Positions 3,001-62,699 of a stretch of 64,000 nt of DNA are shown here, piece after piece. The stretch is taken from NCBI GenBank assembly GCA_008632985.1, contig QPGO01000006.1, forward strand, positions 124,001 to 188,000. Reading direction: 5' to 3'. The translations under genes were made by a program, and so were the position numbers. How positions within the stretch are numbered: the first letter of the stretch is position 1; every line of letters starts with the position of its first letter. The notes beneath the pieces are model-generated. The model saw only the letters and a program-made list of their open reading frames with translations. It was not told the DNA's origin and searched no databases. This DNA comes from Psammoneis japonica. Its lineage: Eukaryota.

Positions 3001-3180
3001 TTTCTGCTGCCTTCCGCTGTTTGGCACTTTGAAGCTCTTGCGCAACAATTTCTGGTTCTTCCACTCAGCAGCATCTTCATTCTTTAGAGCATCTGGTGCA
3101 TCAGCTTCTGTGTGGGACAACTGGTGGTGTTGGGCAACCTTCAAATGTCTCGGTTTGATCAGGCTTGGCGGCAGCGCGTC
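1..3180. other. TpA-depleted, degenerate sequence (left flank of the Copia; contiguous with 8952 onward before insertion)
   Basis: Roughly a dozen TA in 3.2 kb; TG/CA-rich; Tyr-poor, Cys/His-rich ORFs. Removing the Copia rejoins the minus-strand frames 8952-9173 and 2758-3174 in frame (…IRDDA|LPPSLIKPRHLKVAQ…). Confidence 0.8.
3175..3180. repeat. Target-site duplication CGCGTC (partner at 8952-8957)
   Basis: Same hexamer immediately outside both LTR termini. Confidence 0.85.
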
Positions 3181-3484
3181 TGTCGCGGAACATGACTCAG
3201 GCGGGACTCAGATGATTGGGTCCCGTTCACGAATGAAGAGTCACGTGGTTTCTGGTCACAAGAATCACGGCGAACCGGGATGTTTGCGATCCAGGGACGA
3301 TGGTCCCCCGTGATGTTTGACGTGACGTTTGGACGTGTTACTTTGAGTTTGACAGGACTGTAATTCAGAAGAAGTAGAAAAGTAGATTATAATTTAGCGA
3401 GAGTGAGAAATGTGAAGACTATTAATTTTAGTTTTTTGTGCTACTGACAAGGTGTTAGTAGTATCGGCATCTGGTTGTCCAACA
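3181..3484 (+). repeat. 5' LTR (304 bp)
   Basis: Starts TG, ends CA; direct repeat of 8648-8951. Confidence 0.95.
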
Positions 3485-3543
3485 CGATATATATCGACAG
3501 TTTGTGGCAACACTACATTCGAGAGTAGTAAGTGAGAGAAGCG

Positions 3544-4743
3544 ATGAGCAAGGAAGAACAGACCTACGAGACTTCTTTGTCGTGGAGCGGCAAGAGAGAA
3601 GACTTCGAGAATTTTTTGGTGAAATTCGAGGCATTCGAGAGCGACCACGGTTGTGACGAAGCAACCGATGTGGATCTAGGAGATAAGCTTCTCACCAAGG
3701 CGGAATACGTGAATGGAAAGAAGAAAGTAACGCAAGCTAATGGTACAGAGACCGAAGAAGACCTCACAAAGGAGGATAAGAGGTTGTACAAGCTGAACGC
3801 GAAATCATTTTCGAAGATCATCCGTGCGTTGCCTGAAAACTTGATCAAGGCCTGCAAGAACCAAGGTGGACCCAAGAAGTCCGTTTATTTGATCAAGGAG
3901 TACCTCAAGAAACACTACTCGGAGCAGAATGTGGTAGATGATTACCAAAACCTCTACAAGAAGAGGTTGGAGCTAGAACCTGGAGAGTTCGAGATAGCGC
4001 TGTTCTATTTCAACGAGTTGGAGGATATTAACTCCAAGTTGGGAAAGATTGATGAAAAGTATCGCTTAGATGAGCTTCAGTTGAAGACTGATATCTATTC
4101 AAAAGTCCCGGATCAAGGTAACTGGTCCTCTTTCAAGTCCGAGTATCGCAAGGACGGCGCGATGGAGAACATTGCCTACAGTGCGTTCAAGCAGCACTAT
4201 GAACGGGAGTGGAAAGCTCATGGTCCACCAGGAGGATCTACTACATCTATAGATCGATCTTCTGGAGAGGATAAGACCCTAACTATGAAGGTACAGGGTA
4301 GCAAGTTTTTCCCGGGTAATTGTGGGAAGTGTGGCAAGAAAGGTCACAAGTCAAAATTTTGTCCTGACAAGAAGAACGCCAAGACGAAGAAATTCGATGG
4401 CGATTGCTTTTATTGCGGCAAGCATGGACATAGAGCGAGCGACTGCTTCAAGAAGAAGAAGGATGAAAGGAGAAAGACGAAGAAACGAACGAGGTTACAC
4501 TCGGAGTGTTCGATTCCGTCGACTTGGTTGAGGAGGGTAAGGACCCTATTCCAGACTCCTTCTTCGATACCTTCGATACTAAGCCTGCAGTTCGAGACGA
4601 TGAGTTCGAGAGAGAGCTTAAGAGGTGGGATACTCGGTCTGGACTGGGTTACGGCTACGATAGTAGCGGCGAACGCGCGCTGTCATGGTACGAATGGAGC
4701 GAGATGGCAGACGATGAGGACGAAGAAGACGATGACGGCATGA
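3544..4743 (+). CDS. gag: Copia Gag with two CCHC zinc knuckles (true frame probably shifts near 4480 into an acidic linker)
   Basis: CGKCGKKGHKSKFC and CFYCGKHGHRASDC; ATG at 3544; the downstream D/E-rich linker with IPPL..YDS repeats continues in other frames. Confidence 0.85.
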   Translation: MSKEEQTYETSLSWSGKREDFENFLVKFEAFESDHGCDEATDVDLGDKLLTKAEYVNGKKKVTQANGTETEEDLTKEDKRLYKLNAKSFSKIIRALPENLIKACKNQGGPKKSVYLIKEYLKKHYSEQNVVDDYQNLYKKRLELEPGEFEIALFYFNELEDINSKLGKIDEKYRLDELQLKTDIYSKVPDQGNWSSFKSEYRKDGAMENIAYSAFKQHYEREWKAHGPPGGSTTSIDRSSGEDKTLTMKVQGSKFFPGNCGKCGKKGHKSKFCPDKKNAKTKKFDGDCFYCGKHGHRASDCFKKKKDERRKTKKRTRLHSECSIPSTWLRRVRTLFQTPSSIPSILSLQFETMSSRESLRGGILGLDWVTATIVAANARCHGTNGARWQTMRTKKTMTA

Positions 4744-5158
4744 GTATGCCGGAGCTAGAAGGTCCTTTTGTTTCTGATAAGGTCGAGGATGAAAGTATCC
4801 CGCCCTTGGAACCGCGGTATGATTCGACAGCGATTCGGATGATGACGAGTCATTAGAGCTGATCGGCTCTCAACGCAAGTGCACCAACTGTGACGGGCCT
4901 GGACATGTCTATCGAGGCTATCGCACAACGAAGAAAGTTCAAGACGAGGACAAGGGAGACGAGGAAGACAGTATCCCGCCCTTAGTATCTCGTGGCGGTT
5001 ATGATAGCGACTCGAGCGATGACGAGTCGGTTGAATTCGAGGTTGTTTGCTCGTATTGCGGACAGCCTGGACACGAATTCTGCACTCCTTTCCAAGAGTT
5101 TTGGAATAACCCGGATGAAGAGAGCGATGATGACAGTATTCCGACTCTAGAGAGTGGT

Positions 5159-6585
5159 ATGGACTCGGATAGTGATTCAGAGTCCGAGTTTGATTACGAT
5201 TCGGACGACGACTATGACGAAATACTGATGTCCGGTGCGCAGTATGAACCAGAACGTGGCGGTGTAAGGCTACTATTGGACTCTGGCTCGACAGCACATA
5301 CTAAGAGGTCTGTTGAAGGGATGAGGAACCTCAAGGAAGTGAACAAAGTCATGAAGGACGCACACGACGGGAGTTCGGTAGCGAAGCTCCAAGGAGATTT
5401 TCCATTTACGCGTCAGAATGGGGACGGTACAGTAGTTATTACTGAGATGTACGTCCAGCCAAATTTTTCACATAACATTGTGAGTCTGACGAAGCTATTT
5501 GAGAAAAATTGCAAGCTGAGTCCGACGACTGATCCCAAACGAGCCATTGTTCTCGAGTGCCCTGATGGCACGGAATTAATTTTCGAAAAATCAGCGAAAG
5601 ATGGGCTGTTTTATATGGAAGTTGACTCACTGACGGATGTGTCCGAAATGACCGCAGACGTTTCCGATGGACAGAAATCTGGACAAAAAGAGTCGGACAA
5701 GAAAGTCCATGTTAACCGCGCACACATTTTGCTGAACCACATGGGAGAACGCGCGATGAAAATGGCGGCAGCAGATCTCGGTTGGAAATTGACCGGTATA
5801 CCGAAGACTTGCGAGTTCTGTGTCAAGGCAAAGGCTACAGCAAAGCCAACCGTGAAGGCTAGCGATAAGAAAGCGACCAAGCCTGGTCAGCGGCTCTACC
5901 TAGACACGTCAGGACCATACAAAGCGACGCGCGGCAAGAATCGATATCATGTGATGATAGTCGATCAACTTACAGATCGACTTTGGTCGATGTTCCAAGC
6001 GAAGAAAAATGGTTTTACGGACGATATCAAAGCTTTATTGACTAAGCTGAAGGGTCAGGGGTACCCAGTCGAGTTCTTACGGATCGACAACGCTCCGGAA
6101 TGGGGTGCACTCAAGCCAATTTGTGATGAGTATGGGATCACGATCGAGTATACCTCCCCTAATACTCCGCAGTTCAACGCGGCAGTCGAGAGAGCGTTCC
6201 CAACAGTGCGTAATATGGCATACGCGGTACTGAAAGCATCCGATTTCGACGACGCAGAGCAAAGTCGGCAATGGCGAATGCGCTGCAGGACTGCACTATC
6301 GTTCGTAACTTGGTCCCACGTGGGGACTGGAGCAATGCTTATGAACCATTTGGAGAAAAGCCACCCGTAAAAGCCGAAGACCTGGTAGAGTTTGGCGCAA
6401 AGGGGTGGATGGCCAAGAGAAACAAGATCAAGGCCAAGTTTCAAGATCGTGCCGAGGAGGTTCGTCGCGTAGGATACGCTGAGAATCACTCGAGCGATAC
6501 GTATATTGTTCAAAAGTTATCAAATCGTCGTTGTGTGTTGACACGCGACGTGGTATGGGAGTCTAAAGACGATATGATCACCTAG
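5159..6585 (+). CDS. pol: Copia Pol: aspartic protease, GAG-pre-integrase and integrase core (frameshift near 6275)
   Basis: LLLDSGSTAH protease motif; H..LNH...CEFC zinc finger; LYLD, LRIDN and VERAF integrase DDE motifs; C-terminal part in the 6271-6585 frame. Confidence 0.9.
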
Positions 6586-6841
6586 ACCCCGAGACAGTGG
6601 TCGAAAAGCAAACTCCGCGAGTAACTTGGGCGGACGACGCAAGACCGTCAACAGTGGTTGAAGAGATATCACGCCCCTCTCAGTCATCCGCAGACGACCC
6701 CGACTTTCATGATTCTCATTCACAAATTGAGGAGGGAGAAGAGAGTGCAACAGACGGCGAGGAATCAACGGATAGCGAAGAAAGTGACTCCGAGATGGGT
6801 GCGCCACCTGACGGACCAGGACAGACGGATAAGAATCAGCT

Positions 6842-8780
6842 GTGAATAGTCGATTGGAACGCGAGTTGAGCAAGCTGAGGACTTCTTATAACCCAGCTGG
6901 TCTCCCAAGCGACGACGAGGACGAGGTAGAAGCGGTGAATATGGTCGCAGGATATGTTGATCCGAAGAATGATCGCGAAGCGATGACAGGCGACGAAGCT
7001 GACGAGTGGTGGAAGGGTCTAGTCACAGAATACGATGGATTTTTCGACTTGAGAACTTGGATACTGGTCAAGGAAGCCGAATTGAAAGGTAAAAAGATAT
7101 CCAAGCCGCTATCAACGAAGAACGTCTACAAAAAGAAATTACACGCGATAACAAAAGAGGTGCGGTATCGCGTGCGCAACTGCATTCGGGGGTTCGATAT
7201 GATACCCGGAGTTCATTTCGATGAATCTTTTGCACCTACTCCGACGGATCATACTGTGAGACTCATATTGGCGATATCATTATGGATGCTGGAACAGTTG
7301 GAAGTCGATGATATCGACGAAGCCGAGAAGGAGTGGATTGTCGGGCATTTGTTCGATGTTGTGCAGGCATTTCTGAACTCAGAGATGACTGGACCACTGT
7401 ACATGTGCATCTTCCCCTATGTGGAAGGAGTATTGCGAATATAAAGGTTGGGAATACAACGAGAACGATCTTATTTTGCTCGGAAAGGCGCAATATGGGC
7501 AAGTCGATGCCGCGAAGCGCTGGATTGATATGTTTGTCGGAATCATGACTGAAAAGGGTGGCGTCGAGCTTAAACGAAGCAAGACTGACCCTTGTGTGTT
7601 GTACCGTCATGATGACAAGGGGCAATTGGAGATTATCATTTTGATTTATGTGGACGATGGTTTCATATGTGGGAGGCCGGAAGTCGTTAAGGAAGCCAAG
7701 GACTATTTGGCGAAGAGAGCTAAGATACTGGACATTGGACGAATCGACACTCATTTAGGAATTGATTATGAGTTGAAGAAAGACGAACACGGTTGGTACT
7801 TCAAGTGCAGTATGCGCAAGTACGTGGAAAAGATGGTTGCGGAATACGAACAACGCTTCAACAAGACACTTAAGGATTACGAGACACCTGGGGAGCCAGG
7901 GAAGATATTGATGAAGGCGGACGAAGACCATGAGCCGGTCGAGCAAAACGGATACCGAGCCTTCGTCGGAAAGATCCTATATGCGATGTTGAAGGTCTTA
8001 CCTGATTGCGCGAATGCGATTAGAGCGTTGACAATGCATTTGACGAATCCAACTAAGGATCACTGGCACGCGCTGGACAGACTTATGGGACATCTGAAAT
8101 TTCACTATCAGCCGTTGAAGTTGAGGTCACCTTTGGAATTAAGGAGCATAGGGATATTCGACGCTGAGTGGGGGACGGACAAGAATGACAGAAAGAGCAT
8201 TTCGAGTGACATTTCCACACTGGGCGGTACGTCGTTAACTAATTGGCAATCGAAGAAGCAGACCTCTGTGGCGCTGAGCAGTTGTGAAAGTGAGACCATA
8301 GCGGGCACGGCGTGCGCGCAGAGCATACAATTCCAGAATCATTTATTGGAAGAGCTGGTAGGTACGGACATGTTGAAGATGCCGAGTTATGCGTACGGAG
8401 ACAACGCCGCATCACTGTTTCTGGCTGTTAACAACCAAGTGGGACAGCGGACGAAACACATTCACATTCGTGATAGATATTTGGGCGAGTTGGTTCAACG
8501 TGGAGAAATTGAACCACGCCATGTCAGTACGGAGAAGAACCCGGCAGATGTCAACACCAAGAACGCGAAGATCGAAACGCACAAGAGACTAGCTCAGAAC
8601 CTGTATGACGGATTCGTGATGGTTGAACCGGAACCAATCAAGGAGGGTGTCGCGGAACATGACTCAGGCGGGACTCAGATGATTGGGTCCCGTTCACGAA
8701 TGAAGAGTCACGTGGTTTCTGGTCACAAGAATCACGGCGAACCGGGATGTTTGCGATCCAGGGACGATGGTCCCCCGTGA
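6842..8780 (+). CDS. pol: Copia Pol: reverse transcriptase (RVT_2) and RNase H (frameshift near 7410)
   Basis: RGFDMIPGVHFDESFAP, DVVQAFLN, KAQYGQVDAAKRW, IYVDD; RNase H motifs WQSKKQTSVALSSCESE and RTKHIHIR. Confidence 0.92.
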
Positions 8781-8951
8781 TGTTTGACGTGACGTTTGGA
8801 CGTGTTACTTTGAGTTTGACAGGACTGTAATTCAGAAGAAGTAGAAAAGTAGATTATAATTTAGCGAGAGTGAGAAATGTGAAGACTGTTAATTTTAGTT
8901 TTTTGTGCCACTGACAAGGTGTTAGCAGTGTCGGCATCTGGTTGTCCAACA
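8648..8951 (+). repeat. 3' LTR (304 bp)
   Basis: Identical to 3181-3484 except at 8888, 8909, 8926 and 8930; preceded by the purine run AAGGAGGG (8640-8647). Confidence 0.95.
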
Positions 8952-11900
8952 CGCGTCATCGCGGATCATCGGTTCAAGGTTTTCTCCCCAAATGACCCCC
9001 TTTCTGCTTGGGGAGGATGGCCAATTCTCCATTGCCATGATTGAGGAATGTGAGGTGAGACCCAAGCACCACCGCTTGAAGATGACTGGCGTGTCTGCCC
9101 TTTTGGGGGGACACTCATTGCTGCCAGAAGGAGAGGATCCAGTCCACCAGTTGTGACACACACAAGGGCACACTTGAGTTTGAGGAGTTCATGGAGTTGG
9201 CTCATTGCAAGGAATCATGGGAAGGAAAGTTGAGGTTCATCTCTTCTTCTTTCCTGATCCCCTTGCATGGACTCCTCTTCATTGTAAATGATCTCCAACT
9301 CAATGGCAATCTTTTGCGCTGTAGAGTCATTTGCGCAGAAATGTGTGGAACAGTGCCAAGACAATTGTTGAAAAGTCTGTCTGTCTGTCCTCAGTGAATT
9401 TTAACTTTGCGAAAAATGGACTTGACTGTTTTCTGATCAGGTGCATTTTTCTTCAACACATTTGCAAAAATGCACCTGACCCAACAACAGTCAAGTCTGT
9501 TTTTGCACAAATTGTGTGAACATGACAGTTTCAGTGCAAAAACATGCAGATTCTGCAGGTGTCCACAATTGTTTCATGCTTTTTACGTCACGGGTCATTT
9601 TCGAAAGATTCCCATTGGTCAAGGTCAGTGCAGGCAGCAAGTGCATTGTTTTCAAGGAGGGCACAACCAAACATGGTGGAGAAACCTGCAGCATGCAACA
9701 GGACAAGTCATGGAGGACAAGCACCCATGTGGGCATGTGGGCCACATGCCCGCATGTGATGCTGATTGCACAGTTGACCACTCAAGGATCTGTGTGGATC
9801 AAAGCCATGATGACTTGCACATGTCAGCAAAGCACCTTCCAGCATTTGCATGGGAGGATGTGACCAGAGAGGTGGGGCATGTTGGCAAGAAATTCACAGA
9901 CATTTTCAAGAATGCAGAGCTCAAGGGGATGTTCAGAACTTCAGTTTGAGGTGTGCCAGATGACTGGGAACTGGCTGATGAAGCAACACAAGGCAGATGA
10001 TTTGGAAAAACAACTCAAGAAACAAGGCAAGATGAAATTTGATGAAATGTTGAATGCTGCTGTGGCAGTGCAGCATGTGGTGGGCACAATCATGATGAAG
10101 GAGGGGAAAAGGAGGTGCTCTGACAATGTGGGGTCAACAAGGATGTTGAGTGGACAGCCCATGCAAAGTTGGAGATTCTGTGAGGGAAACAAACAAGTTG
10201 AGCCAACAGATGAGCAAAGAGTGCAAGGAGCAGGCACAGCTTGCAAAGAGTGGTGGGCAGAGGCAGGAGGAGGAGGAGGCTTTGTCAGCTGACCCAGCTG
10301 AAAAGCTCAAAGGAAGTGACAATGCAGAAGAGGTGGCAGAAGCATTTGACAAGGTGGCTGGGTCCAGAGAGGGCAAGTCAATGCAGAAGAAGAGCAAGAA
10401 GCCAAGCCAGGAGAATGCTGCCAGGAGAAAGAAAAGACCAAGAAGAAATTGAACAAAAACAGTGGTTGAATCAAACAGAGCTGGGACCCTGGAAACTGCA
10501 AAGTGGTTGTGAGCAAAAAACCTTGGAGAGGGAGAAAGAAGCTGCTGGTCTGTGCTGCAAAGCTTGGAGCGGTCCAGCCATGTCAGCCAAAGGAAGTGCA
10601 TTTTTGGTGCTGACAAATTGAACTGCAAAGGACCCAGATGCTTGCTGAGTGCCCAGAAAGTCAGTCAAGAGGGGGATTCCACCAGGAACAAAGCCACCTC
10701 CACACTCAAACTTGAGCATGAAATTAAAAAGAATCTGGGAGAGACCAGAGCAAATTGAGTCCATGCAGTTGCAGCCATCCTTGAACATCAGGCACAAGCC
10801 CCCACAAGCTCAACATGCCTGCCCTGGGAAAAGCAGCAAGAGTTTGAAAGAAAACTTAAGTGGCTTGTTGAGGCAGACACAAGCTGCCCAAAATGAGCTC
10901 AATCTTTGTGCAGAGGGGGTCAACAAGTGACAGATTCTGAAGGGCCCTCTTGAGTTGGACTCTTTGCTGAGCAGCTGTGTGTCTCACTTTCTTCATTTGC
11001 AAACATCTGAGATGAAACATTGGATGCTTCAAATGATGTGACAACATCACATTTGTTGAAGCATCAGGCAGGGAGAAGACATCCGCGATGCTCTTCTGCT
11101 TCATTTGGGCATTCATTGCCAGCAGCAAACCATCAATGACTTCATGACATCTGTGTGAGCTTCACAAAATGTCTCATCAGCATTGATTTCATCACATGCC
11201 TCTCCAATCAACTTGACAACGGTGCTGGCAGTCCACAAATGGTCCAGTGCAATGGGCAGAGAGTGCACAATGACCATGTTGCATGACTCGCCATCATGTC
11301 AGCAGCATGTTCTGTCTTGAACTTGTTGTCTTTGTGCTTTGTTCTTGCCCAATTGTTGATGAACTGACAAAGCTGAAAACATGGTTCAGCAGTGTTTTCA
11401 TTCATTGTGGTCAGATGAGTCCTGACAGTCCAGAGCCACTCTCCTCTGGATCTCTTTGTCATTTTTGCAGCTGACTCTCATGGCAACATCTGCCAGCAAT
11501 CAGCTTCTCACTTCCTTGTTCAGGCACCCAGAGAATTGGACCTTGTTCTCCCTGTCCACAACCACAAGCTGAACAATGTTGTCCACTAAAGTGCCAGTTG
11601 TTTGAATGCAAAGAGGCAGCTTCTGCTCCAGGGGAGGACAGCTGAGAGCCTGGCTGTCAACAAGTTTGACTGCAGAGACAACTGGGTTTGTGTGGTTGTT
11701 CTGTCTAGAGTGACAACAAGAAAGGGACTTTGTCTCAGGAAGAAGCTTGATGACAGGAAGACAAAGGGCACATTGTTGGCATTGAATGAGTTCCTTGGTC
11801 ACTTCAGGAGAGCACAAGAGGGCCCCAAGAAGGCCATCAGGCTCCTGCTGCAAATGACTGTGCAAGGCATTGCAGCTGAAGATTGCGGTCATCAGACAAT

Positions 11901-14150
11901 GATTTTTGACAATGCAGCAACAACCCAGGCTTGCATCATGTGATTGTCCTTGTCAGGTGCAGAAACAAGGGGGTTGAGCAAGTTGTTTGTGCTCATGATC
12001 TCCAGTTTGAAAGTGAGCACATGCACAAGAAGCACAAAATCCAAAAATCCATCACATCAATGGAAAAAGGTGCTGTGTCATGTTCGCTGATCAAGGGCAC
12101 AAATGTGTTTGGCACAAATGACCTCAAAACAGAAAACAGCCAATGAGCTGGCTGGGAGTCAATGGCGTCTCAACCAAAAAATGACTGAGGCAATGCAAAA
12201 CTTTGAATGTTTTGCGTTGGTGAACACAGCCATTTTTGTGAAACCCCAAACCATGGGAAAGTCGCTGCACTCCATTTTGCACACAAAGACCACTTGCCTT
12301 GCAAATTTGGTCATTTTGAAAGTGGTCAGCCCCAAACCCCGACTTCGTCTTGCCAATCTGTCTTGGGTCCATTTGGGGTCTTCAGGGCAGGGAGGGACAC
12401 AGACGGACACCTCCACAGAGAACATTTCTGCCACAGAATTGCTGAGGGGAGCACCACAAGTGGGAGACTCAGCCACCAACAGCAGCTGCTCTTGAGTGTC
12501 TCTGCTGCTGCCCTCCTCTGAGGCATTCTGTCTGCCACAAACCAGCTGGCAGAAGCCAGGTGCAGGACCAAACCTCAGAGGATGCACAGAGTGACAATGA
12601 GAAGAGCCTCCAGGGGTTGGGGCACAATTGACAAGGGTGCTCCATGCCTCCCCAGGGAGTTGATCCATGTCACTTCCAAGACTGGGCAGGGCTTGCATCA
12701 GCACAAAATCAGCAACTTCAGACCAATCAAGAAAGCAGCCTTTTGGGTGGCTGTGCACAACGGTTTTGTCATGGCACAGGGTGTGGGAGGGAGGGAGCTG
12801 AAACAAAAATCAAGGTGAGGAGGAGAATGACAAAGTGCTGGCATGGTGAGTTGCTGTTTTTTTTTGTCGGTGACACTGTGTGGCTGCTGGGATTCAGAGT
12901 GCACAAATGAGCCACTGTTGCTTGATGACATTGATGGATGAATGTTGATGGATGAATGTTGTTGGTGATTGAAGATGCACACAAGAGGGGCATTGCATCT
13001 CACAGTGGTGCAAACATGACATCTGCACTGGATCAGCAAATTGTTGGTCAGGTGCAACTTCAACAGCAAACATTTTTTGATGAGATTGAAGCAAGTCAAA
13101 GCATTCATTGCATTGATGTTTGGAACTTGTGGGGTGATTCACATCACAGAAATCACATGTGTGTGTGCACAGGATCAGCAAATTGCTGATCTCACACTGT
13201 TGGCCTCAGTGGAAATTTTGGTTGATCATCCACCCGTGTGCTCCACATTGCTGGGTGGGACTTGTTGCACCACACTTGCGCATGACTGGAGATGTCGAAA
13301 GAGCAAAAGCTCAAGGTTGCAAACTGGCAGTTGTTGTTGCTGCAAAAGCTGCTGACTGAAAATTGTGACTGCAGTGTCAGTCAAAGATTTTGATGGTGGA
13401 ATTTGAAAATGGAGCATGCGAGATCGCAAATGGATGACCATGCAGAATGACAGACGTCAACTCTCCCTCTCAACCAACTGACCATGCACAGAGCCGCCAG
13501 CCACAAAGCTGTCCACTGCAAACTGCGAATCCGCAGCTCTTCACAAAACCTGTGGGATTTACACTGGAACTCATGTAGAATTTGATGTGGGTGCAACTCC
13601 ATTTTGACAAGGACAAGTGGAGCTGCACGGTCCATTTGAGCACATGTTTGACAAGGATGCCTGAGGAGGAATCCTCTTCATTCATTTCCTTCATTCCACT
13701 CAGGCGCTGGGATGATGAAGCACACATTTTTGCACCCACGGACAAAAAGTGCCCTGCCCGGCAAAAGGCACTGGAAAAACCATGCCCTGCTGGGCGTTTG
13801 GCTTCTTTGCAGAGTGCCTGGTGCCATCCACATGTGCAACCCCGCTTGCTCTTTTGGAGCTCTGACAGCAGCTCCCTCCAACACAAGTTTTCACATCAAG
13901 AAAACACCACAGCCAACCATGAGCCATGAGCCACTCTCCTGCCTGCTCCCACCCTTTCCAGCCACAAGACAACACCTGCTCGCAGCACAGCCAGAAGAGT
14001 TGCTTGCATCGTGTGGCAATGAAGAAAATGACATTTTTGGCCTGACAGCTTCTCAAAAAGTGTCTGCTTTTTCGAGCGGCATTTCAAGATTTTGCAAAGT
14101 TCACTCCCTCACTGAACTTCATGTTGGTCCTGCATTTGTTGCAACAGAGC
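8952..14150. other. TpA- and CpG-depleted degenerate domain (unidentified decayed element or genes)
   Basis: About ten TA in ~5.2 kb by eye; CpG also scarce; no recognisable intact ORF. Confidence 0.8.
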
Positions 14151-16895
14151 TTGTATTTAGATAGATCATGGCATGTTGCTGTTCTTTAGAGTGTTTGCTG
14201 CCAATGGTAGAGAGAGCTGCGACTACGACGGCACCTCACGACGCTTTTGGGCCACGTCCGCGCGGCCATCGCTGTGATTTTCGACATGACGCTCATAACC
14301 CATAAAATCAATTCTTTATCTTTCCGAAACGCAGACAGCATCGCAACTCAAGTCGACCATGGGATCGGTTGCGGCTTGCGGCGGCGGCAATATTTAACAC
14401 CAAGTGTAAGAAACACCTGGAGAGTATGTTAAAACCTCATTATGATGATAAGGTAAGGGCACTAAAGCAGGGCATCTTCATTTGATGCCTTTAATCGTCA
14501 TCTGAACTTTTCACTCAATTTCTTTGTTTCTTCTGCATCCGACACGACAGCAAATGTTTTGAAGGTCTAAAGTGGAATGTATTATGCAGGTACCCATGAC
14601 TTGGACGATATATACGATAAAGATGACATGGAAAGGCTTAAGCTCTTTCTCTGGCATCATTTTCCGTGTCAAAAACAAAAGCAAGCGCGGCTGTCCCTGC
14701 TTTTCAAGTTCGTTTGCGACAATCAAATCGACTCAATGTCTACGTTAATCCATCCAAAGGTTTCAATCAACAGCTGAAACGCCTCCCTCTATGCCTAAAG
14801 CAGACGATCCTGGGTAGTTATCAGGTGTTAAAAATCCATGCGAGTTCCTGAGGAGACGCAAGCAGTTGGACCTCGGATCCTGTGCATGTACCAGCTCCAA
14901 CCAAATCGATGCGGAGCACAGCTTAAATTGTTCATATTGTCTGCAAAGAGGCTATTTTATGCGGTCAATGCTTCTTAAGATTGGGATCAAACTGTAGAAA
15001 ATACTGCCAGTGACTGGCAATTGACGACAGCTGGCTGGAACCCTTTTGACGGACACCCATTTTCATCATTTTGAGTGCACGGAACGATGCGTAGTTTGTT
15101 AATAATATAGATTGAAGGCTCAACAATAGTCCATCAAGCATCTAATATATTGAAGGACATTGAATATGAGCAGTGGCAAGAGTCAACAAAAACAACAAGT
15201 GCCATTGAAGCCCGAAAGTGGATTTGATCCGGCGCTTGGTGAGCGCCAGCAGTTCTCTCTTAAAGGCTCCAAGCGCTAGAAATCATCACTTCAATGATAA
15301 GCATAGATTGTTAATGCGTAATATGATAAAGTAGCATGGACTAGTGCTCATGTCGTCTCCTACATTGCAAATTGTTTCCGGTGGTAGATTGGCACATTTG
15401 TGGGTCCACCCAGCTTGCTGGTCCTCATGTCCTTGAATTGCTCTTTTGTTTCCTTGTCTTGCCCATAGCAGCTTCCTTTGCTGTATGAAGGGGATCTCTA
15501 ATTCCTTGAACAATCCCTCCTCATGAATTTCTTGGCATTCTGAGTCGATCAGGCGGTTGCGACAGGACCAAGGCGACGGATGCACATTTGGATGAGCTCT
15601 TGTTTTCAGCTCAGCATCACCTCCCACAACTGTCAGGATATTTTCTCCTTCATCTGGATCATAAATATCGACGAATGAACATCATCCCATGCCACACCTT
15701 CAATGTTGAACCTTGAGAACGTCGCCTGAAGTTGTCGGAAGCAGCGACATCGGGTGAAACAAGTGGGCGGCAGCAAAAGTCTTTTTTTCGCTCTGCAAGT
15801 CCCAAGATTAGCAATGTTTTTACATGGAACGACAGACAAGTAAGTAAATGATGAGATGCAATCGAAACATTGCGAATGTTGACCCAAGAACGCAAGCAGT
15901 AACGTTCTTACCGATGAACGGCGACTCACCATTTTCGTTCCGTGACTTTTACGCATTTTTTGTACTGGAAATTGTGGGAGGCAGATCTGAATTTCGGCCC
16001 AAAAAAAAAAAAGAAGGAAGGAGCGGCTTTCAGTACTGCCGTAGAATCTACGTGCAAGATGACGTCACAGTACAAAATGCCATTTCTACGCAGCGGTGGC
16101 CGCTTGACCTGTAGGGCCCTACCGGTAAGATAATACGTCGGAAGCGCAAGTCGTCTGGGCGTCCCTACGTGCGCATTGAGCGCATTGCACACACTACACG
16201 AATGCATGGACAGCTTGCCGAGTTTCATTTTTGGTGTGCCAGTAGAAAGTCAATATGCTTCTACATGCGACAGTTTCTCATACATGCGTACGAACATCAC
16301 GAACTCTGCGAGCTCCAACACGAGAATAACACGAAGCACGAAGAGTTTGCGAGAGAGCGAATGGCGTTGCTAACACACTGTGAATGTAAAGTAAAAATGC
16401 CAAAACATTATTGTTACATAACATGTAGATGGTTGGTCTATTGACAGACAAAACACATCGCCTTCAAAGCTGGTCAGAAGCTTCAACAGACTGCACAGCT
16501 GTTTGCATGTTGTTGGGTCGTAACAGAGGCCTGCGTCCCCCACTTTGAATCATTCTCAAATGACAACCACAGCCAACTCCTCCACCAACATTGCTGTCAT
16601 CTCCCATGTCAAGTTGCTGTTCAATTCACACAATGCTCTCTGCAGCAGGAGAGCAAATGATGAGACTTCTAGCTCGTCCAACAAGAGGACAAAGCCGCCG
16701 ACTCAACAACTCTCCAGCATTTCTGTCTCAGTCATAGATTTGTCATGTGACTGGTTGACATCCACAACCACAAACATTTTTGGAAGTGTTGCTTGTTTGT
16801 GCCCACAAAGCAGAGCCCTCCAAACTGCTGCTGCATGGAGAAAAGGACGACAAAGCAGCCAGTCACAGTTCCTGGATGAGCGACCTTTTCAGAAC

Positions 16896-17454
16896 AAGTC
16901 CTCCTTGGGATCAGGCTGAATTCACTGTCATGCCACCAATTTGAGCTCTGCTGAGTCGTCCATGCCGGTTGTGTTTGCCACAGTGCTGCTTGAGCAACTT
17001 CCAATGGGGCCAACGCGTCATTTGCGGTTCTTGCATCCACAGAAACACATTCAGGGCAAGTCCTCCTTGGCCTCCAGCTAACTCCACCGTCATGCCACCA
17101 CATTGAGAACTGCTGAGTCTTCCATGCTGAATGCTAACGTCGCAACACCGCCAAGGACACTTCAAATGGGATCGGTGCATTGTCGCAATTCCAACACCGA
17201 CCATTGCACGTCATGTTGATGGGTCCAACGGCGTCTTTTTATGGCGAAACAAAACCCCTGCAACTCGGTCACGACCGGCCATTGCTGAGTCTTCCATGCT
17301 GCATGCTGGCGCATGACAGCACCAAAGACACTTCAAACAGGGTCAACATGTCGTCTCAATGTCAACACCGACCATTGTGCATCACGTTGATGGGTCCAAC
17401 AGCGTCTTTTCATGGCGAAACAAAACCCCTGTAACCCGGTCACGACCGGCCATT
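16896..17454. repeat. Imperfect local tandem duplications (~160-170 bp period)
   Basis: The block CAACACCGACCATTG...GGCGAAACAAAACCCCTG...GGTCACGACCGGCCATT occurs at ~17191 and ~17362; AAGTCCTCCTTGG...CTGAGTC occurs at ~16896 and ~17057. Confidence 0.75.
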
Positions 17455-18069
17455 TTCTTGAAGCGATTGTCAGTTACATTCTTAAACTCCATGGCAAGGG
17501 AGATGTGATGTGGAGAGGTGGCGTCAGAGTGCAAACAATGCCGTCGCATCATCACCATTGTGAGTGCAGCATGCACGGGTGGGTCGCCGCACAAATTTGA
17601 ATGAGCTGATGGGTCCAACTGCCATTGCAGCACAAATGCACGTAGAAACTGGCATGTGCAGATCTACACAACTTTGTGCTGGCATGCCAAAAATGAACTC
17701 GGCAAGCTGTCCATCTCCACTGGGCAGAGCAGAGAGCAGCAGCAACAGCATGTTGCACCATGACGGAAGCGCATTGCCATCACTGTGAAACAGAGCCAGC
17801 ACAAGCTGACGAGAGTTGTGTTTGAGCCTTGTGGCCATGCGTCATGTCTTTTTTGTGTGACAGATCGAGACACCGCCTGAGAGGCGAAAAAGCTCAGATG
17901 CTGCAGTCTGCAGTCATGAATTCATCACGGCATCAGATCACAACAATCTGAATGCATTGTTCCGACTGACTTGTTCCTTTCAATGGAAAACACAGCCAGT
18001 GGAATGGCACAACAATGCGAAAAGCAGAAGAAGCACATGGGTGAGTGGCGGTCGTTTTGGAAGCAACAC

Positions 18070-18255
18070 TCATGTGTCAGCTGTCAGCAATCGCAGCACA
18101 CTTGATGCACAGCTTCTGAGTTTTTCCAACTGCGCAGACATGATCCCCTCAATCCGATTCACATGCAACATGAGCATTTCTGGATTCAAAAGATTGCCAA
18201 GTTCTGTTGGGATGAATCCAGAAAAGCAGTTGGATGACAAGTTGAGAGCATGCAA
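18070..18255 (-). pseudogene. Leucine-rich-repeat fragment (plant-type LRR, receptor-like)
   Basis: LNLSSNCFSGFIPTELGNL...LHVNRIEGI fits the LxLxxNxLSGxIPxELGNL consensus; a second fragment (GCIPREIGNMT) lies on the + strand near 18440. Confidence 0.65.
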
Positions 18256-21200
18256 ACTTTTGTCATCTCATGCGGCCCAGCTCCCTGCGGGAATCGTCCC
18301 TCACACATTTGCACCAGCAGACGACAGCGCCAAATTAGTCTCATGTTCAAACAATTGCAAGGCTGCTCATGAATGTGGATGGGCAGGAGTGCGGTGTGCC
18401 GAGTTCAAGCAAGTTGATGTTTTGGACCTCTCCGTGGTGGGTTGCATTCCCCGAGAGATTGGAAACATGACAAACTCAGGTCCGCAGTGGGTTCTACAGT
18501 GTGCTTTGCAAGTTGTGAACGTCCAAGAGTGTTTTCGTTCGCACTCATGATCTTTCCATCTCTCGGTTCGACAGCATTTCATTCCTGCACAGAGCAACTT
18601 TACATGGATTGCAGCCGCCTGTTGGAGGGTGCGGCGCGTCTTCACATTTCTGAATTGACGCTGCTCCGTCAACGCATCACCGCGTTTCAAGAGGGCACGC
18701 CAAATTCAAACATTGCGTCCCTGTTGCTCAAATTACCCTCTGCCACTTGACTCCTTTCAGGCTCCTAAAGACGTCCTCCAGCTGTCTGTCTTCATTGTCT
18801 GAGAGAGAGTGCAATGTCCATTGCCTTCGACCCCTCACAAAAGACACAAAATTTGCAGCGACACAGGCGACAGGCGACACCTTTTAATGGATGATGGTGC
18901 AAGCAGCAAAGAAGCAAAAGATCCCTGGGGTCCAGACACGCTGCACTGTTGGGACTTGGAGAGCGTTGGCTTTTTCATCCAACAGAGTGCGAGCAGTCGC
19001 ATGATCGGAAGCCCAGCATCGCTTGGCTGCCGCACAATGTAGAACACGTGATCAACCACAAATGCTGCAGAACTCAAAAGATGATCAGTGCCAAACAAGC
19101 ATTGTGTGCACAGAGAGTGGGTGTCGTTTGCAGCATCATTTTGATGAGTTCTTTCCATTCCGACGCAGCTGAATTTCCCCAAAAGCAGAATTCAAATGTC
19201 ACACATGGGATTGCTTTTTTGTGTTGTCTCACCGACAGGTTCCCACATTGGTGAGGCCGCCACGCATGCGTGGACCACAGCATTCATTTTGGCCAGAACC
19301 TTTTTGAGCTCAACAAAACGTGCCATGCAGACATCATTTCCCTGCTTTGTTCAAATTCGTCCTTGTCGTCGTCAAAATCGTCTTCGAAATGCTTGTGACG
19401 AGTTGGAGGCAGCTCTTTCATCGACCGCGACTCATCCGTTTGTAGAATTTCTTTTTTGTTGGGCAAGAGGATGGTGCAATGGGGAACTGGCTTGTCATCA
19501 AAATGCACCTTGAGAATTTTCGCTCGCATTTCGACACATCCCGAACCCAGTTTGAGAATTGCAATTTGTCCTCGTTTGCACTTGGTGTCGAGCATCTGAA
19601 CAGTTGACTCCAGTCCCTTCCTGAAATGGCCTTCATTGTGACACTTGAACATCCACGGAGCAAAGCGCCAGAAAACCAGAGACGCAAGTCCAGTGCATTG
19701 TGTTGAGTCAAGTCCATGTGCCGATGCGATGAGCAGGTGGATCACAATGCCAGCGATCTTCTTGTCAGTGGCACAAACGACTTCTCCAATGTCAACACTC
19801 ACCAGCAAAATCAAAGGGTCTTCCTTGGATCCGATGCTGGAAGCATGCCCTTTGACTGTCTTGAGCGCATTCTTGCAAACGAATTTGACGAGCGCTGCCG
19901 CGATTGGAGTTGTTTCACCCACCATCTTGACTGTGGACTCCATCAATGTGCTCGACAGATCGAGGAAGAAGACAATGGACTTTTTTAATTGTGCCAATGA
20001 GCTTTTTGTAGAGATTGATGCTTGCTTCCAAAATGATGTGCACCGTCAACAGAGACACACTGCTGTTGAACGTTGGGCTACGAAAAATGTGCCACGCCCG
20101 CTTTGCATCGACACCGATTACATGACTGCAACAAAAGACAGCAAACATCCTAACCAAGAGATGCATGGTGCACCAGAAGCGCTTGACATCCTCTTCTCCA
20201 CAATCGCGGCCTTCAACAAACACCGGCTCCTGCATCACGGCGGCAACAACGCAAGAACACAGTTGGATGTGATTGTCAAGGCGCAAGACTTTGATGCACA
20301 AGCCAGTCGTTCACTCACCGTTGTCGTCCAGCTCTTTGGAAACACCCAAGGAAAGAGGCCGAAAACACAGCGACGGAAGAAGCAAACGTAGATCTCGATG
20401 CCCCCGACAAGAACTGGAAGCGAGAGAATGAAGTGCACAATGGTGAATGCAAGAAAGATGTTGGACATGGCAGAGTCGGACAGATCCATGATTTCAAGGC
20501 AATTGAGTCAATGCAGTGCGTCGATTGAATCAATTGTGTGCCCTTGCATGAGAAAGCGTGGGTCCGTGGGAACGATCGTGTCGTGGGATCTGCAGATGGT
20601 TTTGCGAGGTCGACGTTGTGTGATTGGCAGGTTTCACGTAGAAACATGTGCCATGGTTTGTGTGGGACGACCTGTTGCCCATCTTGCTCATTCAAAGTCT
20701 TCAGGATTGGATGAATGAATGCATTGCGTAGATTTCCCGCGATTTTGGCACCATTGCATGAGCCAGATCGTCAGCAACCGCGCGCAAATGCGCAGAGATC
20801 TTCACGGTGTCTTTTCTCGTGTTGGTGTTCCGCAAAGATCTTGATGTTTTGGGTTGTCCATCTGCCAGCATCATCATCATCATGTCTGCAATTCTCTCTC
20901 CTTGATCTTGCACCTGCCCATGAGAAAATCTGCCGTCACTCTTTCAGCAATGTTTGCACCAATGCCTCCAAAACGACGCAAGGCTGCAGTGAAAAAGGAA
21001 GAATCTTCTTCCAAATGGACAAAGCGAGATTCAAGAATTGCATGCCGTGTGCCATTCTTGTGATGGGTTGGTCCTGTCGTAGCCCCATCTGCTCTCTGCT
21101 GGCTAGAGAGTGGCAGCTGGAGCCACGCAGTTTCCCCCCCCCCAGCCAACCAACACTCTCTCACCTCTCACCGTCATTTTGCGTGTTTCTTTGTGTGTGG

Positions 21201-24200: not shown

Positions 24201-26502
24201 TTTGAAATTGTTGATGGTCCGGTGCATGGGCATCCATGGCTGAACTGAAAAAAAAGGCACCAGTGTCTCGGGATTTGTCTGCTGCATCAACCCTTGCCTC
24301 AGCAAATGCATTCTCCAAAGCCACCACAGTTTCCAATTTGAGAGCTTGCCACTTTCTGACTCTTGCTCCCGCATTGAATCAGACTGCAAAATGCTTCTTG
24401 GTCATCAGCCGCCCCCACGATGATTGGATTCTTGGACTCTTGTGGCTCTTTCACTTGCGTGTTCTGGGGAGAAGCAACTGATTCCTTGATGTCTGAAGTG
24501 GATTGTAAGAAGTGCTTCAACACTTTCCAACTTGAAAGGTTCGCTGTCTTCTGACTCTGCCTCTCGTGTCTTTGTGGAATCCAATCTCTCCCTGTCAACA
24601 GCTGCAGCCGATCTCTTGTGGCTTTTTCCCTTGTGCGCACTCTCTGCAGCAGATTCTGCAGTGGCATGTGGATGATTCTGGATTCTCCAAGGCTGCAATG
24701 CTTCATTCTCCTTGATTCTTCTGCTTGAGTCATTGTGGAAACCAATTCCTCGTTCACTCTAGCTGCACCCGAAATGATTGGTGTGCTGACTTGCTTGCTC
24801 TCTGTGGCAGCGATTCTGTGGCATTTGCAGACGACTCTAACTTTTCCAAAGCTTCAGCGGTTTGCAAGTAGAAAATTTCTGTCTTTCTAACTCTTCATCT
24901 CAAGTCGTGTTGGATTTCATTTTCTCATTGTCAGCAGCTGCACCCATGATGATGTGAGCCAAGATCTCTTTTGGCTCTTTTCTGCATGTCTTTTTGGCAG
25001 CAGACTCCTCAGCATCCACAGATGATGCCAGAATGACAAGAGCCTCAATCGGCAACTGACAGCGCCAAATCAGATGCCGCCCCAAAAACAAGAGTTTTTG
25101 TCTCAACTGATTGTTCTTTTTTGGGTTTCGTCTCGGAAAGTGATGCAATGGATTCTGGAGAGTGTCTGCAGAGCTTCCTTGACAAAAATTGGATCTTCCT
25201 TTGCTTGTCTTCATTCGCTTTGTCCGCAGTTGCCTCCAGGATGTCAGTTGCATTTTCTTCTGACAATTTTTCTTGTGACACCGTCTCAGCTGCCGGCTCT
25301 TTTACAGCCTTGAGAATGAGGCCCCTCTCTCTTTGTTCTGCCATTCCTGACGCCACTTCTCAGGCATGCCTTCTGGAATTGTGGTGCTTTTCCACTGCAA
25401 GTCACTGGCTCAAGAGCTGGGCACAAAACAGTGTGAGCAGCCAACAGAAGCTGCACAGCAAACACATGTTAAAGCATCAGTCAACAGGGTTGGCCTTTTC
25501 CGCTGTGTTGGCGTTTGTTGTTTCTGCTTTCCAGATGGACAGATGGGTATCATCTTCTGCCCAACAAGAACCGCGCAAGTCTCCTGCTCAAGCTCAAATG
25601 ATTGCAGCCTGCCTGGGCTTGCCTCGGCCTCCTTCTCCTCCAATTTAAGTCTGAACTCAGCTGCCCAGTCAAATTGTTGCAGACTGCCCCGGCACGCATC
25701 GGCCTCCTCTTCCCGGTCAAATGATTGCAGCCCACCCTGGCATGCATCGGCCATCGGCCTCCTTTACCTGGTCAAATTATTGCAACCTACGGTAAAGCAG
25801 TGCTACCCCGGTGCCAGCACCTCCATGCATCGGCTTCCTTCCTCTTCTTCGTTGTGGTGAGAATTTTTAATTTCGAAATTTTGTATTATTATTTAAGTCT
25901 ATAAATATTTTATATGAAGTACTTTGTATATGTCAATAATATAATATATATCTATTTTAAAAATTTAAATTAGTCTACAAAATATGAATTTATATAGGAT
26001 TAACAATGGTTTCTCAGTATTTGAAATTTTTTTGTCCTACTCTATGCCAATAGTGAACGGCACGCCACAATGTACAGTACTGTAAGACTTCCGGTAGGGC
26101 CCTATCCCGCCCCAAAATGAAAACTTGAAAACACCGATGACAATGACAATGTGCACAAGCCAACACCCCCCACATCTATAAACAACGAGACGTCGCTTCG
26201 CTCTCACCGTTGTATGTGTCATTTGCAATACAAAAGTTGGAAGGATGCAGTAACGCATTGTGAAGTTTCATCCCGAGCCATGACACGTCGCTTCGCTCTC
26301 CTGTGGTGTCGTCATAGCCATGCGACATGCGAACGATGGAGCAGCACGCGCAGTTATAGTGCAACAGCTTCTTCCTTGCCCCTTACCATCGAGCACGATT
26401 CCCTTGTTCGGGGACCGAAAGGTGGCTACTTAGGACAAATGAAACATTGACTTGCCCTCATTGCAGCACATCAAACAGTGTGCAAAAACATGCCGTACGG
26501 CA

Positions 26503-45900: not shown

Positions 45901-46199
45901 TTTATGGTCGATGCGTTTGCAGCCAAAAGACTCTGAGGCAACGCCGTGGGCACAGACCACCGGCACGTCGAAAATGTGTCAATCGCTTCTCCCACCCCCT
46001 CGACATCATCCTCCTTTTTCTCTGGAACAATGGGGGCGTTGCAGCAACGGGCGGTGGTGGCATCATCACGTGTCGTTGACGCCATGTTGTTTTGTGCAAC
46101 AGTTTCAAGTTTCAACAGTTGACTGGCATCTGGCATCAACAAAGTTGGACGACGGGCGGAGTGCGGATGGACGGAAAGCACCGGCAGGGTCATGAGGTT

Positions 46200-62605: not shown

Positions 62606-62699
62606 TTATGTCAACATATTTGGACGATTAACAGTAGTAAGCTTGATCAGTATAAACATGATTGAAACTATTCTTTTGTTTGTAAAACAAAATGGCCTT

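Follow-up and report, generated by a model that had tools for sequence, protein, structure and literature searches.

A single 2026 preprint, on the alga Bigelowiella natans (Mettrop et al., bioRxiv 10.64898/2026.01.13.699255), has so far been the sole description of genomic DNA undergoing targeted A:T to G:C hypermutation, and the basic TpA signature described below is already present in that work. In two integrated viral regions, according to the preprint, 230 of the 231 mutations that arose de novo were A>G or T>C, with the GC-biased ones all on TpA, and the de novo rate was ~1000-fold above background. The preprint further describes 124 clusters poor in TpA and rich in CpA and TpG in 95 Mb (Rho 0.45 in the active viral region), gives integrated giant-virus and virophage DNA as the targets, and proposes a deaminase. 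Its main text includes no analysis of flanking bases.

Adenine deaminases of other kinds have also been characterised. The A34 tRNA deaminases have in common a T or U preceding the A that they edit, and fungal mRNA editing by Tad2/Tad3 prefers UAG (PMC11087585). Amphioxus ADAT2/3 deaminates DNA, and amphioxus ADAT2, in that account the sole natural ADAT2 with reported DNA editing, prefers GAA for A, TCG for C, and hairpin loops (PMC10354150).

The DNA analysed here is a single stretch of 64,000 nt (the window), in which the same signature was found, much deeper, in a seemingly different lineage. As in the regions that the preprint describes for B. natans, the A:T to G:C change is restricted to TpA and gives TpG or CpA depending on the strand, and kb-scale regions poor in TpA and rich in CpA and TpG lie in silenced or unannotatable DNA. 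However, the depletion is far deeper and denser than reported there (52% of the window, observed/expected 0.02–0.14), the open reading frames (ORFs) are long and uninterrupted, and viral genes were not recognised by Pfam among 105 ORFs. The organism is probably not B. natans, and its genome looks diatom-like: the relatives of the sole well-conserved host gene all carry diatom names, none exceeds 41% identity, and there is no near-identical protein.

Extent and composition of the TA-depleted domains

About half of the window is made up of blocks with sharp borders, where almost every TA step has become TG or CA (Table 1). The six depleted domains, which were delimited using an HMM, contain 171 TA in 33,245 bp, compared with 1,372 TA in the 30,755 bp of normal DNA. 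The observed/expected ratio of TA is 0.023–0.138 in the six domains and 0.60–0.70 in the normal DNA that alternates with them. When tabulated per kb, depleted kilobases have a ratio of 0.0–0.18 for TA and mostly 1.5–2.0 for CA+TG, with a few at 1.39–1.49. The domain borders are sharp to <100 bp, and at 14154 there is no transition zone, TA sites beginning at once. CpG is also lost from the depleted domains, and this loss is not TCG-specific, as ACG and TCG half-sites survive at 0.14–0.19 and CCG and GCG half-sites at 0.33.

Table 1. Coordinates of features in the 64,000-nt window
Feature	Coordinates	Strand	Details
TA-depleted domain, left part	1..3180		12 TA in 1-3338, observed/expected 0.054
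Young Ty1/copia LTR retrotransposon	3181..8953	+	LTRs 3181-3486 and 8648-8953; TSD CGCGTC 3175-3180 and 8952-8957
Spill-over zone	8888..8930		All 4 LTR differences, TA to TG/CA in 3' LTR: 8888, 8909, 8926, 8930
TA-depleted, CpG-poor domain (main finding)	8952..14153 (HMM 8924-14153)		10 TA; TA observed/expected 0.029; CG observed/expected 0.163
Multi-copy block of normal TA content, flanked by depleted domains	14154..16439		TA observed/expected 0.60; summed contig depth 835-1410
TA-depleted domain, moderate CpG loss	16440..25764		51 TA, observed/expected 0.085; CG observed/expected 0.59
TA-depleted domain with copy A and left 1.26 kb of copy B	37732..47463		81 TA, observed/expected 0.138
Copy A	38449-39403 and 41085-42984		Inside depleted domain 37732..47463; keeps 22/118 of copy C's TA
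Copy B	46200..48385		Depleted up to 47463, lightly mutated beyond
TA-depleted, CpG-poor domain, partly paralogous to 42987-45269	48658..52960		15 TA, observed/expected 0.053; CG observed/expected 0.30
Copy C, unmutated paralogue	52968..55835		118 TA in 2,868 bp; normal domain begins 52961
TA-depleted domain running off window end	62684..64000		2 TA, observed/expected 0.023; CG observed/expected 0.22

ORFs of 110 aa or more number 17 in 8952–14153 and 105 in all of the depleted DNA, and not one of them has a Pfam match above its cut-off; the Pfam scans of the ORFs in this window found no deaminase either. Parts of the depleted DNA are multi-copy, judging by contig depth, and no homologues were found for the depleted tandem paralogues. 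The copia element and the block at 14154–16439 are spared although multi-copy.

A sequencing or assembly artefact, in which a long-read basecaller wrongly renders modified TpA and CpG in heterochromatin as TG/CA, would explain why TA and CG both become TG/CA and why the borders are domain-like, as in a base-modification map. However, short-read-like contigs from run X1, which may be the source sample, carry the TA-free sequence with 0–1 differences at a word depth of 55–66 (for example 9856–10450, with 1 difference). Such agreement suggests that the reads were of an accurate type, in which a modified base is called as its parent. In addition, the paralogues described below differ by transversions and indels too, and the preprint obtained the same signature by Illumina in B. 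natans lines. An artefact is considered extremely improbable.

Loss of TA in paralogous copies

Paralogous copies A, B and C were compared, with copy C used as a proxy for the ancestor. The 118 TA sites of copy C correspond in copy A to 55 TG, 40 CA, 22 TA and 1 TC; thus 95 of the 96 changed sites are transitions and one is a transversion. Between the two copies overall, A>G plus T>C differences number 127, and G>A plus C>T 55. In 2,161 columns, 50 TA-site transitions are specific to the copy A lineage, which has 15 other A:T>G:C changes beside them, and only 1 is specific to copy C. Both strands were struck about equally (55 TG versus 40 CA, binomial p = 0.15) and sites independently of one another, with no strand-coordinated runs in copy A (runs test z = +1.2).

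Copy B extends across a domain border, and the switch in its state at 47463 coincides with the end of an ORF at 46451–47470. In its depleted part 30 of 40 TA sites are changed, and in the 'normal' part 14 of 49, with other sites at 4.6% per base. In a comparison of two depleted paralogues (48658–52960 versus 42987–45269), CA was found opposite TG in 26 of 65 adjacent double mismatches, and these two sequences were hit independently after duplication.

The depletion is hence mutation made within this genome and not inherited composition. That foreign DNA was TA-poor before arrival, or that TA is selected against, finds nothing specific in its favour apart from depleted DNA that lacks recognisable genes. 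The paralogues and LTRs in the window show the change of TA to TG/CA directly, and the identity of copies A and C rises from ~90% to ~96% once purines and pyrimidines are collapsed. The likelihood of either origin is considered negligible.

A lower level of change was detected outside TA. The first-pass annotation of this DNA had noted a change of CAATT to CAGTT between copies, and CAATT in copies C and B does align with CAGTT in copy A, although these copies lie at 38–56 kb and the region that the remark accompanied, 8952–14150, holds only one 26-nt repeat pair. The A and B lineages together have 30 A>G changes outside TA, of which 21 are at V-A-T, compared with a baseline of 26% (p = 6e-7), and the per-site rates are 0.53 for TA, 0.048 for VAT and 0.0044 for VAV.

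These data bear on error-prone patch synthesis by a Y-family polymerase of the polymerase eta type at WA, during repair in silent chromatin, which the annotation had offered as one of two sources of the mutations. Polymerase eta makes A>G errors at WA, and TA is a WA motif. However, polymerase eta spectra include many transversions, and its WA hotspots, TA and AA alike, show transitions mixed with transversions. Here there are 95 transitions to a single transversion, and AA, the other WA motif, is spared (A-A-N makes up 8 of the 30 off-target changes). Clustered, strand-coordinated patches are also lacking in the runs test. Patch synthesis of this type thus fits poorly and is considered very unlikely.

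Recent mutation at the edge of a copia element

The Ty1/copia element, which encodes zf-CCHC, Pol_BBD, rve and RVT_2 Pfam domains, has a normal TA content (observed/expected 0.66) and a contig depth of 216–520, compared with ~55–66 for single-copy contigs. Its target site duplication joins both flanks, hence 1..3180 and 8952–14153 were one continuous domain before the insertion. The two LTRs are identical at 302 of 306 positions, and all four differences lie within the last 67 bp of the 3' LTR, adjoining the depleted flank, with no other change in the 306 bp. As all four are TA to TG/CA changes at the depleted edge of a young insertion, the process operated in place and was recently active, continuing after a very young copia insertion. 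The LTR edge zone had 7 ancestral TA sites, with TTAA and two TTAG retained and CTAT, CTAC, GTAG and GTAT mutated; thus YTAR was kept at 3 of 3 sites and the others were mutated at 4 of 4 (Fisher p = 0.029).

Alternatively, element RNA or cDNA could have been edited by an ADAR- or ADAT-like enzyme and then inserted, so that the blocks are edited insertions. The sharp domain borders do resemble insertion borders, and U before the edited A suits RNA deaminases. However, editing of a single-stranded intermediate should produce changes in just one direction, and TG and CA products occur together in copy A. The edge of the copia 3' LTR was mutated after insertion, copy B changes state inside a tandem paralogue, and in-place mutation was shown in the B. 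natans lines of the preprint. Editing before integration is regarded as highly improbable.

Flanking-base preference at TA

The first-pass annotation had also reported that ~10 TA sites survive in 8952–14150, in TTAA, CTAA, CTAG, TTAC/GTAA and GTAG, with none in RTAY or containing TAT/ATA. Exactly 10 TA were counted there, against ~233 expected from the normal DNA of the window, all in the contexts named (GTAA 1, GTAG 2, TTAA 3, TTAC 2, CTAA 1 and CTAG 1). RTAY or ATA/TAT-containing sites make up 808 of the 1,372 TA sites (58.9%) in the normal-TA DNA, and their absence from the 10 survivors has p = 1.4e-4 under context-blind loss. Over all six domains, survival was 0.32–0.37 for YTAR, 0.13–0.18 for mixed contexts, and 0–0.075 for RTAY or sites with ATA/TAT. 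The count of NTAN tetranucleotides in depleted versus normal domains that the annotation had suggested as a check gave, in this window, chi2 = 153 over 10 strand-folded classes (p = 2e-28). This bias persisted with two alternative baselines, namely copia only and non-copia DNA without TA-rich patches.

A model with two half-sites was fitted to the survivors, with present-day normal DNA used as a proxy for ancestral context, and gave hazards of 0.50 for TAA, 1.41 for TAC, 0.52 for TAG and 2.31 for TAT (likelihood-ratio chi2 = 135.9, p = 3e-29; goodness of fit p = 0.43). In the paired copies, where the ancestral context is known, the +1 hazards were 0.35 for TAA, 1.19 for TAC, 0.53 for TAG and 0.98 for TAT, and likelihood ratios gave p = 1.5e-4 for the +1 model and p = 0.05 for the -2 model. 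Between T and C at +1, TAT is favoured by the survivors and TAC by the paired copies. An A at +2 was protective in the survivors (log2 +0.98) and in the paired sites (survival 9/77 versus 13/40, p = 0.011). The direction of the product also varied with context, with YTAY giving 32 TG to 11 CA and RTAR 14 to 14 (Fisher p = 0.044, for A and B events that are not independent); for copy A alone the figures are 20:7 versus 13:11 (p = 0.16).

Each adenine of the TA step is therefore a separate target, the rate being set mainly by the 3' base, with a 3' pyrimidine giving ~2.5–4.6 times the purine rate, further protection by A at +2, and a weak side activity at V-A-T. It follows that the best substrate is T-A-Y, an A between pyrimidines, and that the resistant sites are YTAR, T-runs then A-runs. 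The view that TAY is preferred and YTAR resistant, first put forward in the annotation, is thus backed by the window survivors, the paralogous copies and the copia LTR pair.

ADAR has a 3' G preference and a dsRNA substrate. The hazard for TAG is among the lowest, and both DNA strands were struck in place, and ADAR-type editing was rejected; the resistance of TAG likewise speaks against RNA editing before integration.

Comparison with known mutators and probable chemistry

The domains share with fungal RIP a dense, transition-only, dinucleotide-directed mutation of chosen blocks that spills a little into neighbouring sequence and abolishes coding capacity. However, RIP changes C:G to T:A at CpA and gains TpA, whereas here TpA is lost and CpA and TpG are gained. 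RIP is also triggered by duplication and mutates both copies, whereas repeats are insufficient here, as copia, 14154–16439 and copy C are spared.

The T directly 5' of the target A and the pure A-to-G outcome are like those of the TadA/ADAT2-ADAT3 A34 tRNA deaminases, for which T or U holds this position. Bacterial TadA acts in the context UACG, and TAC is a good context here, as for TadA, with TAG and TAA the poorest. Unlike fungal Tad2/Tad3, the 3' preference is for a pyrimidine and not G, TAG being one of the contexts mutated least. Unlike amphioxus ADAT2, GAA accounts for only 1 of the 30 off-target changes and the CpG loss is not TCG-specific. Conversion of ~97% of the expected TA in a 5-kb block on both strands (10 left of ~233) argues against a need for hairpin loops.

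By sequence alone, A-to-G on one strand is indistinguishable from T-to-C on the other. A TET/JBP-type dioxygenase or other enzyme could therefore modify the T of TpA where DNA is silenced, 5-hydroxymethyluracil (5hmU) being one such product, and the altered T would mispair with G or be misrepaired, leading to T to C; the motif would be R-T-A and the side target A-T-B. All results are symmetric between A>G and opposite-strand T>C, although to our knowledge no thymine modification of this kind is known in diatom-like algae. In dinoflagellates, TA and TC are the sites where 5hmU preferentially takes the place of T, with enrichment on transposable elements, which it silences (PMC11572971); this mark thus resembles the present case in its preference for TA and its place on silenced repeats. 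However, this is another lineage, 5hmU is not reported to cause mutation, and its TC co-preference has no counterpart in the window. TC as a co-target, as in C. cohnii, predicts G-A off-targets, whereas the 5' neighbours of the 30 off-target A were C 13, G 9 and A 8. A stable epigenetic mark is also not expected to erase 97% of its own sites. The thymine route is considered unlikely.

Adenine deamination is the likeliest chemistry, with polymerase eta disfavoured, and the DNA adenine deaminase offered by the annotation as its other candidate is plausible. Overall, in-place, domain-directed hypermutation at TpA by enzymatic adenine deamination in silenced DNA is regarded as reasonably probable. 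Chosen kb-scale chromosomal domains undergo A:T to G:C change in place, almost solely at TpA, with a targeted A on the top strand giving TpG and one on the bottom strand giving CpA. The enzyme would be a CDA-fold deaminase, TadA/ADAT2-like or of another type, that turns adenine in DNA into hypoxanthine and is guided to repeats or foreign sequences that are silenced and probably CpG-methylated. Recruitment to methylated or silent DNA had been suggested in the annotation, and the CpG decay in the same domains is consistent with it. The process would be defence-like and of the same kind as the TpA hypermutation in B. natans.

Implications

The target motif obtained here is the first quantitative one for this signature: T-A-Y, with two half-sites that behave independently, protection from A at +2, and V-A-T as a secondary target. 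Candidate enzymes can be screened against this motif, and it makes a prediction testable on the published mutation-accumulation data. The young LTR pair shows a process that is in place and recent, and that stops within ~70 bp of the domain border. It is possible, though tentative, that a diatom-like, non-Bigelowiella alga has a still-active, chromatin-domain-directed dsDNA adenine deaminase that acts at T-A-Y and has rewritten a large share of the repeats in its genome. A natural DNA adenine deaminase specific for T-A-Y would be of interest for base-editing work and, if the proposal is true, the enzyme would be the first natural sequence-specific dsDNA adenine deaminase, and TpA hypermutation would be a widespread genome defence of SAR-clade protists.

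Domains depleted of TA

Two kinds of DNA were found to alternate in the window, which has a GC content of ~48% and is complete except for one N at 32361. Six depleted domains (listed in the table of features) were called by two-state segmentation on the TA positions of the window, and have TA observed/expected ratios of 0.023–0.138 compared with 0.60–0.70 in the five normal stretches, while CA+TG reaches ~1.5–2.0 times expectation in depleted kilobases. The domain borders are sharp; for example, TA is absent from 13577 to 14153 and then occurs at 14154, 14158 and 14162. CpG was also scarce in three of the depleted domains (0.16–0.30). A patch very dense in TA (25765–26100) directly adjoins a depleted domain on its right side, and tandem repeats were present both in normal DNA (26503–26851; 89 bp × 3.9 copies) and in depleted DNA (17111–17454; 171 bp × 2 copies).

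The only public sequencing run containing the region (run X1) is possibly the source sample, and its platform is not on record. At a word depth of 55–66, the level of single-copy DNA, X1 contigs match TA-free stretches with 0–1 differences (e.g. 595 bp at 9856–10450). Such depth and agreement suggest that the reads are accurate, and accurate reads would not convert a modified base into a different letter.

Features of the window and their TA status
Feature	Coordinates	TA status	Remarks
Depleted domain 1	1–3338	depleted	two-state segmentation
Depleted domain 2	8924–14153	depleted	two-state segmentation
Depleted domain 3	16440–25764	depleted	two-state segmentation
Depleted domain 4	37732–47463	depleted	two-state segmentation
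Depleted domain 5	48658–52960	depleted	two-state segmentation
Depleted domain 6	62684–64000	depleted	two-state segmentation
Copy A	38449–39403 plus 41085–42984	depleted
Copy B	46200–48385	depleted as far as 47463
Copy C	52968–55835	normal
Ty1/copia element	3181–8953		within depleted domain; gag, integrase and RT domains; long open frames
GT90 (glycosyltransferase family 90) gene	60968–62602		uninterrupted

Paralogous copies

Three tandem paralogues (copies A, B and C) were compared, with copy C serving as the proxy for the unmutated ancestor. The 118 TA sites of copy C were represented in copy A by TG (55), CA (40), TA (22) or TC (1), and the reverse case, TA in copy A with TG or CA in copy C, was seen twice. 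Over the 2,161 columns common to the three copies, 50 TA-site transitions fell in the A lineage and one in the C lineage, and collapsing purines and pyrimidines raised the A–C identity from ~90% to ~96%. A second pair of paralogues (42987–45269 and 49826–52123), both depleted, had CA opposite TG in 26 of 65 adjacent double mismatches, which represent one ancestral site resolved independently after duplication. The loss of TA is a mutation made within this genome. Light exposure exists too, as 14 of 49 TA sites are gone from the 'normal' part of copy B, compared with a 4.6% difference at other positions. A purine/pyrimidine-collapsed self-comparison did not uncover any further homology of depleted DNA to normal DNA.

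Copy B switches from depleted to lightly mutated at 47463, no more than 7 bp from where an ORF (46451–47470) ends; this ORF is intact in copy C (53121–54305). The position of the switch may be a sign that targeting is delimited by a transcription unit, or may be due to chance. Only copy A carries a 1.68-kb insertion (39404–41084), which is TA-depleted too and has a 508-aa open frame that matched nothing in Pfam. No homologues were found for the 394-aa ORF of copy C, and the best score for a 719-aa ORF in the Atlas search, 0.77, was uninformative.

Sequence context of TA loss

The first-pass annotation had proposed, from the survivors in 8952–14150, that TAY is preferred and YTAR resistant. This motif was confirmed and could be quantified across the window, as the count of NTAN tetranucleotides in depleted versus normal domains revealed a strong flank bias, with survival (surviving TA in depleted domains relative to normal DNA) varying among the NTAN classes (chi2 = 153, p = 2e-28; see the table of survival). 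The 8952–14150 region retains 10 TA (TTAA 3, GTAG 2, TTAC 2, GTAA 1, CTAA 1 and CTAG 1), where ~233 are expected at normal-DNA density. As had been noted by eye, none is RTAY or contains ATA or TAT (0/10, p = 1.4e-4), classes that make up 58.9% of normal-DNA TA sites.

Survival of TA by NTAN class, whole window
Class	Survival
CTAA/TTAG	0.37
CTAG	0.35
TTAA	0.32
GTAA/TTAC	0.18
CTAC/GTAG	0.13
ATAG/CTAT	0.075
ATAA/TTAT	0.058
GTAC	0.048
ATAC/GTAT	0.026
ATAT	0 (124 baseline sites)

A half-site model that treats each adenine of a TA step as a separate, independent target, with a rate set by its 3′ base, gave an adequate fit (deviance 5.9, 6 df, p = 0.43), with hazards estimated from survivors of 0.50 for TAA, 1.41 for TAC, 0.52 for TAG and 2.31 for TAT. 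The pattern was unchanged when strongly and mildly depleted domains were treated separately, and under other baselines. Because only transitions are made, the purine/pyrimidine class of the flanks is kept and the YTAR versus RTAY result is robust; the difference between T and C at +1 is not, the paired copies giving 1.19 for TAC and 0.98 for TAT. When copy C supplied the ancestral context, the +1 model was favoured over a uniform rate (p = 1.5e-4), and a model in which the rate is set by the base 5′ of T (−2) fitted more poorly and gave no clear improvement (p = 0.05). The direction of the outcome agrees moderately with the motif, with 32 TG to 11 CA at YTAY and 14 to 14 at RTAR (p = 0.044; p = 0.16 when restricted to copy A). 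An A at +2 is protective (log2 +0.98 among survivors; paired survival 9/77 versus 13/40, p = 0.011).

Of 30 A to G changes outside TA in the mutated lineages, 21 were in V-A-T, compared with a baseline of 26% (p = 6e-7). They include the CAATT to CAGTT change observed in the first-pass annotation, which is real. The rates per site in the A lineage were 0.53 for TA, 0.048 for VAT and 0.0044 for VAV.

Action on a recently inserted copia element

The copia element has a normal TA content and LTRs identical at 302 of 306 positions, and is apparently intact and very young. Contig depth suggests ~4–9 copies in the genome, and the identity of the polyprotein to its database relatives does not exceed 51%, being 46% for the match that scores highest. 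The target-site duplication, CGCGTC, indicates that 1–3180 and 8952–14153 were formerly contiguous. At each of the four LTR differences, the 5′ LTR has TA where the 3′ LTR has TG or CA, and every one lies in the last 67 bp, adjoining the depleted flank. Of the seven TA in this zone, the three that survive are in TTAA, TTAG and TTAG, and the four that mutated were in CTAT, CTAC, GTAG and GTAT (Fisher p = 0.029). The process therefore went on after the copia insertion, reaching only ~70 bp into the new DNA with its context rule unchanged. With no TA closer than 158 bp, the left LTR edge is uninformative for spill-over. Over 8843–8858 in the 3′ LTR, the sole X1 contig departs from the window sequence at four sites, each a TA to TG or CA change, and may derive from another LTR copy or from a second haplotype with mutation further into the LTR.

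Targeted and spared DNA

Repetition alone is not the trigger, as the copia element, the 14154–16439 block and copy C are all spared; by X1 contig depth, the copia element and this block are multi-copy, as are parts of the depleted DNA. The block (normal TA; depth 835–1410) has a depleted domain on each side, and its left border is razor-sharp. Inspection of its borders by eye gave no obvious terminal repeats or target-site duplications, and it may be another young insertion. A short TA-free segment at 9373–9617 includes a 39-nt inverted repeat (hairpin arms 9412–9450 and 9466–9504), and its summed contig depth of ~3350, versus ~57 for single-copy DNA, gives it the appearance of a high-copy, MITE-like element. 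Metagenome contigs contained no exact match to a 24-mer taken from this segment.

The ORFs of the window are long and uninterrupted. Pfam scans identified no match above cut-off among 105 ORFs of depleted DNA and only copia and GT90 among 50 ORFs of normal DNA, PDZ matches falling below cut-off. Named relatives of the GT90 product all belong to diatoms and reach no more than 41% identity, and the search yielded nothing near-identical. Together with the low identity of the copia polyprotein and the uninterrupted ORFs, this indicates that the genome is probably not that of Bigelowiella natans. No tRNA genes or Rfam families were found in the window.

Candidate mechanisms and precedent

TG and CA outcomes were near equal (55:40, p = 0.15) and randomly ordered (runs test z = +1.2), with no strand-coordinated runs. 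The first-pass annotation had offered polymerase eta, which makes A to G changes at WA and especially TA, as one possible source; this route is disfavoured by the transition to transversion ratio of 95:1 and because AA is not targeted. Known adenine deaminases follow the same 5′ T/U rule as the process in the window but differ from it in 3′ preference, UAG being the reported preference of fungal Tad2/Tad3 (PMC11087585) and GAA that of amphioxus ADAT2 acting on DNA (PMC10354150). A thymine-modification route, like that reported for dinoflagellates, where 5hmU occurs at TA and is located on transposons (PMC11572971), is compatible with the sequence alone and is considered unlikely.

Between copies C and A, TA decayed ~7 times as much as CpG (−ln survival 1.68 versus 0.24). 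CpG was lost most readily at ACG and TCG and least readily at CCG and GCG. Since W-CG decays fastest, there was no support for the same enzyme also deaminating cytosine specifically at TCG. As the loss is not TCG-specific, it looks like ordinary methylated-CpG decay in silenced DNA, and we infer this in preference to an additional activity of the enzyme.

The sole report of a TA to TG/CA signature found in the literature was a preprint on B. natans (10.64898/2026.01.13.699255). It describes A>G and T>C mutations that arose de novo in two integrated viral regions, the GC-biased ones all on TpA, along with 124 TpA-poor clusters, and puts ADAT2 forward as a candidate; the main text of the preprint includes no flank analysis. 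The phenomenon in the window is of the same kind as this TpA hypermutation, first described in 2026, but is far deeper, and P. japonica is probably a second lineage in which TpA hypermutation occurs.
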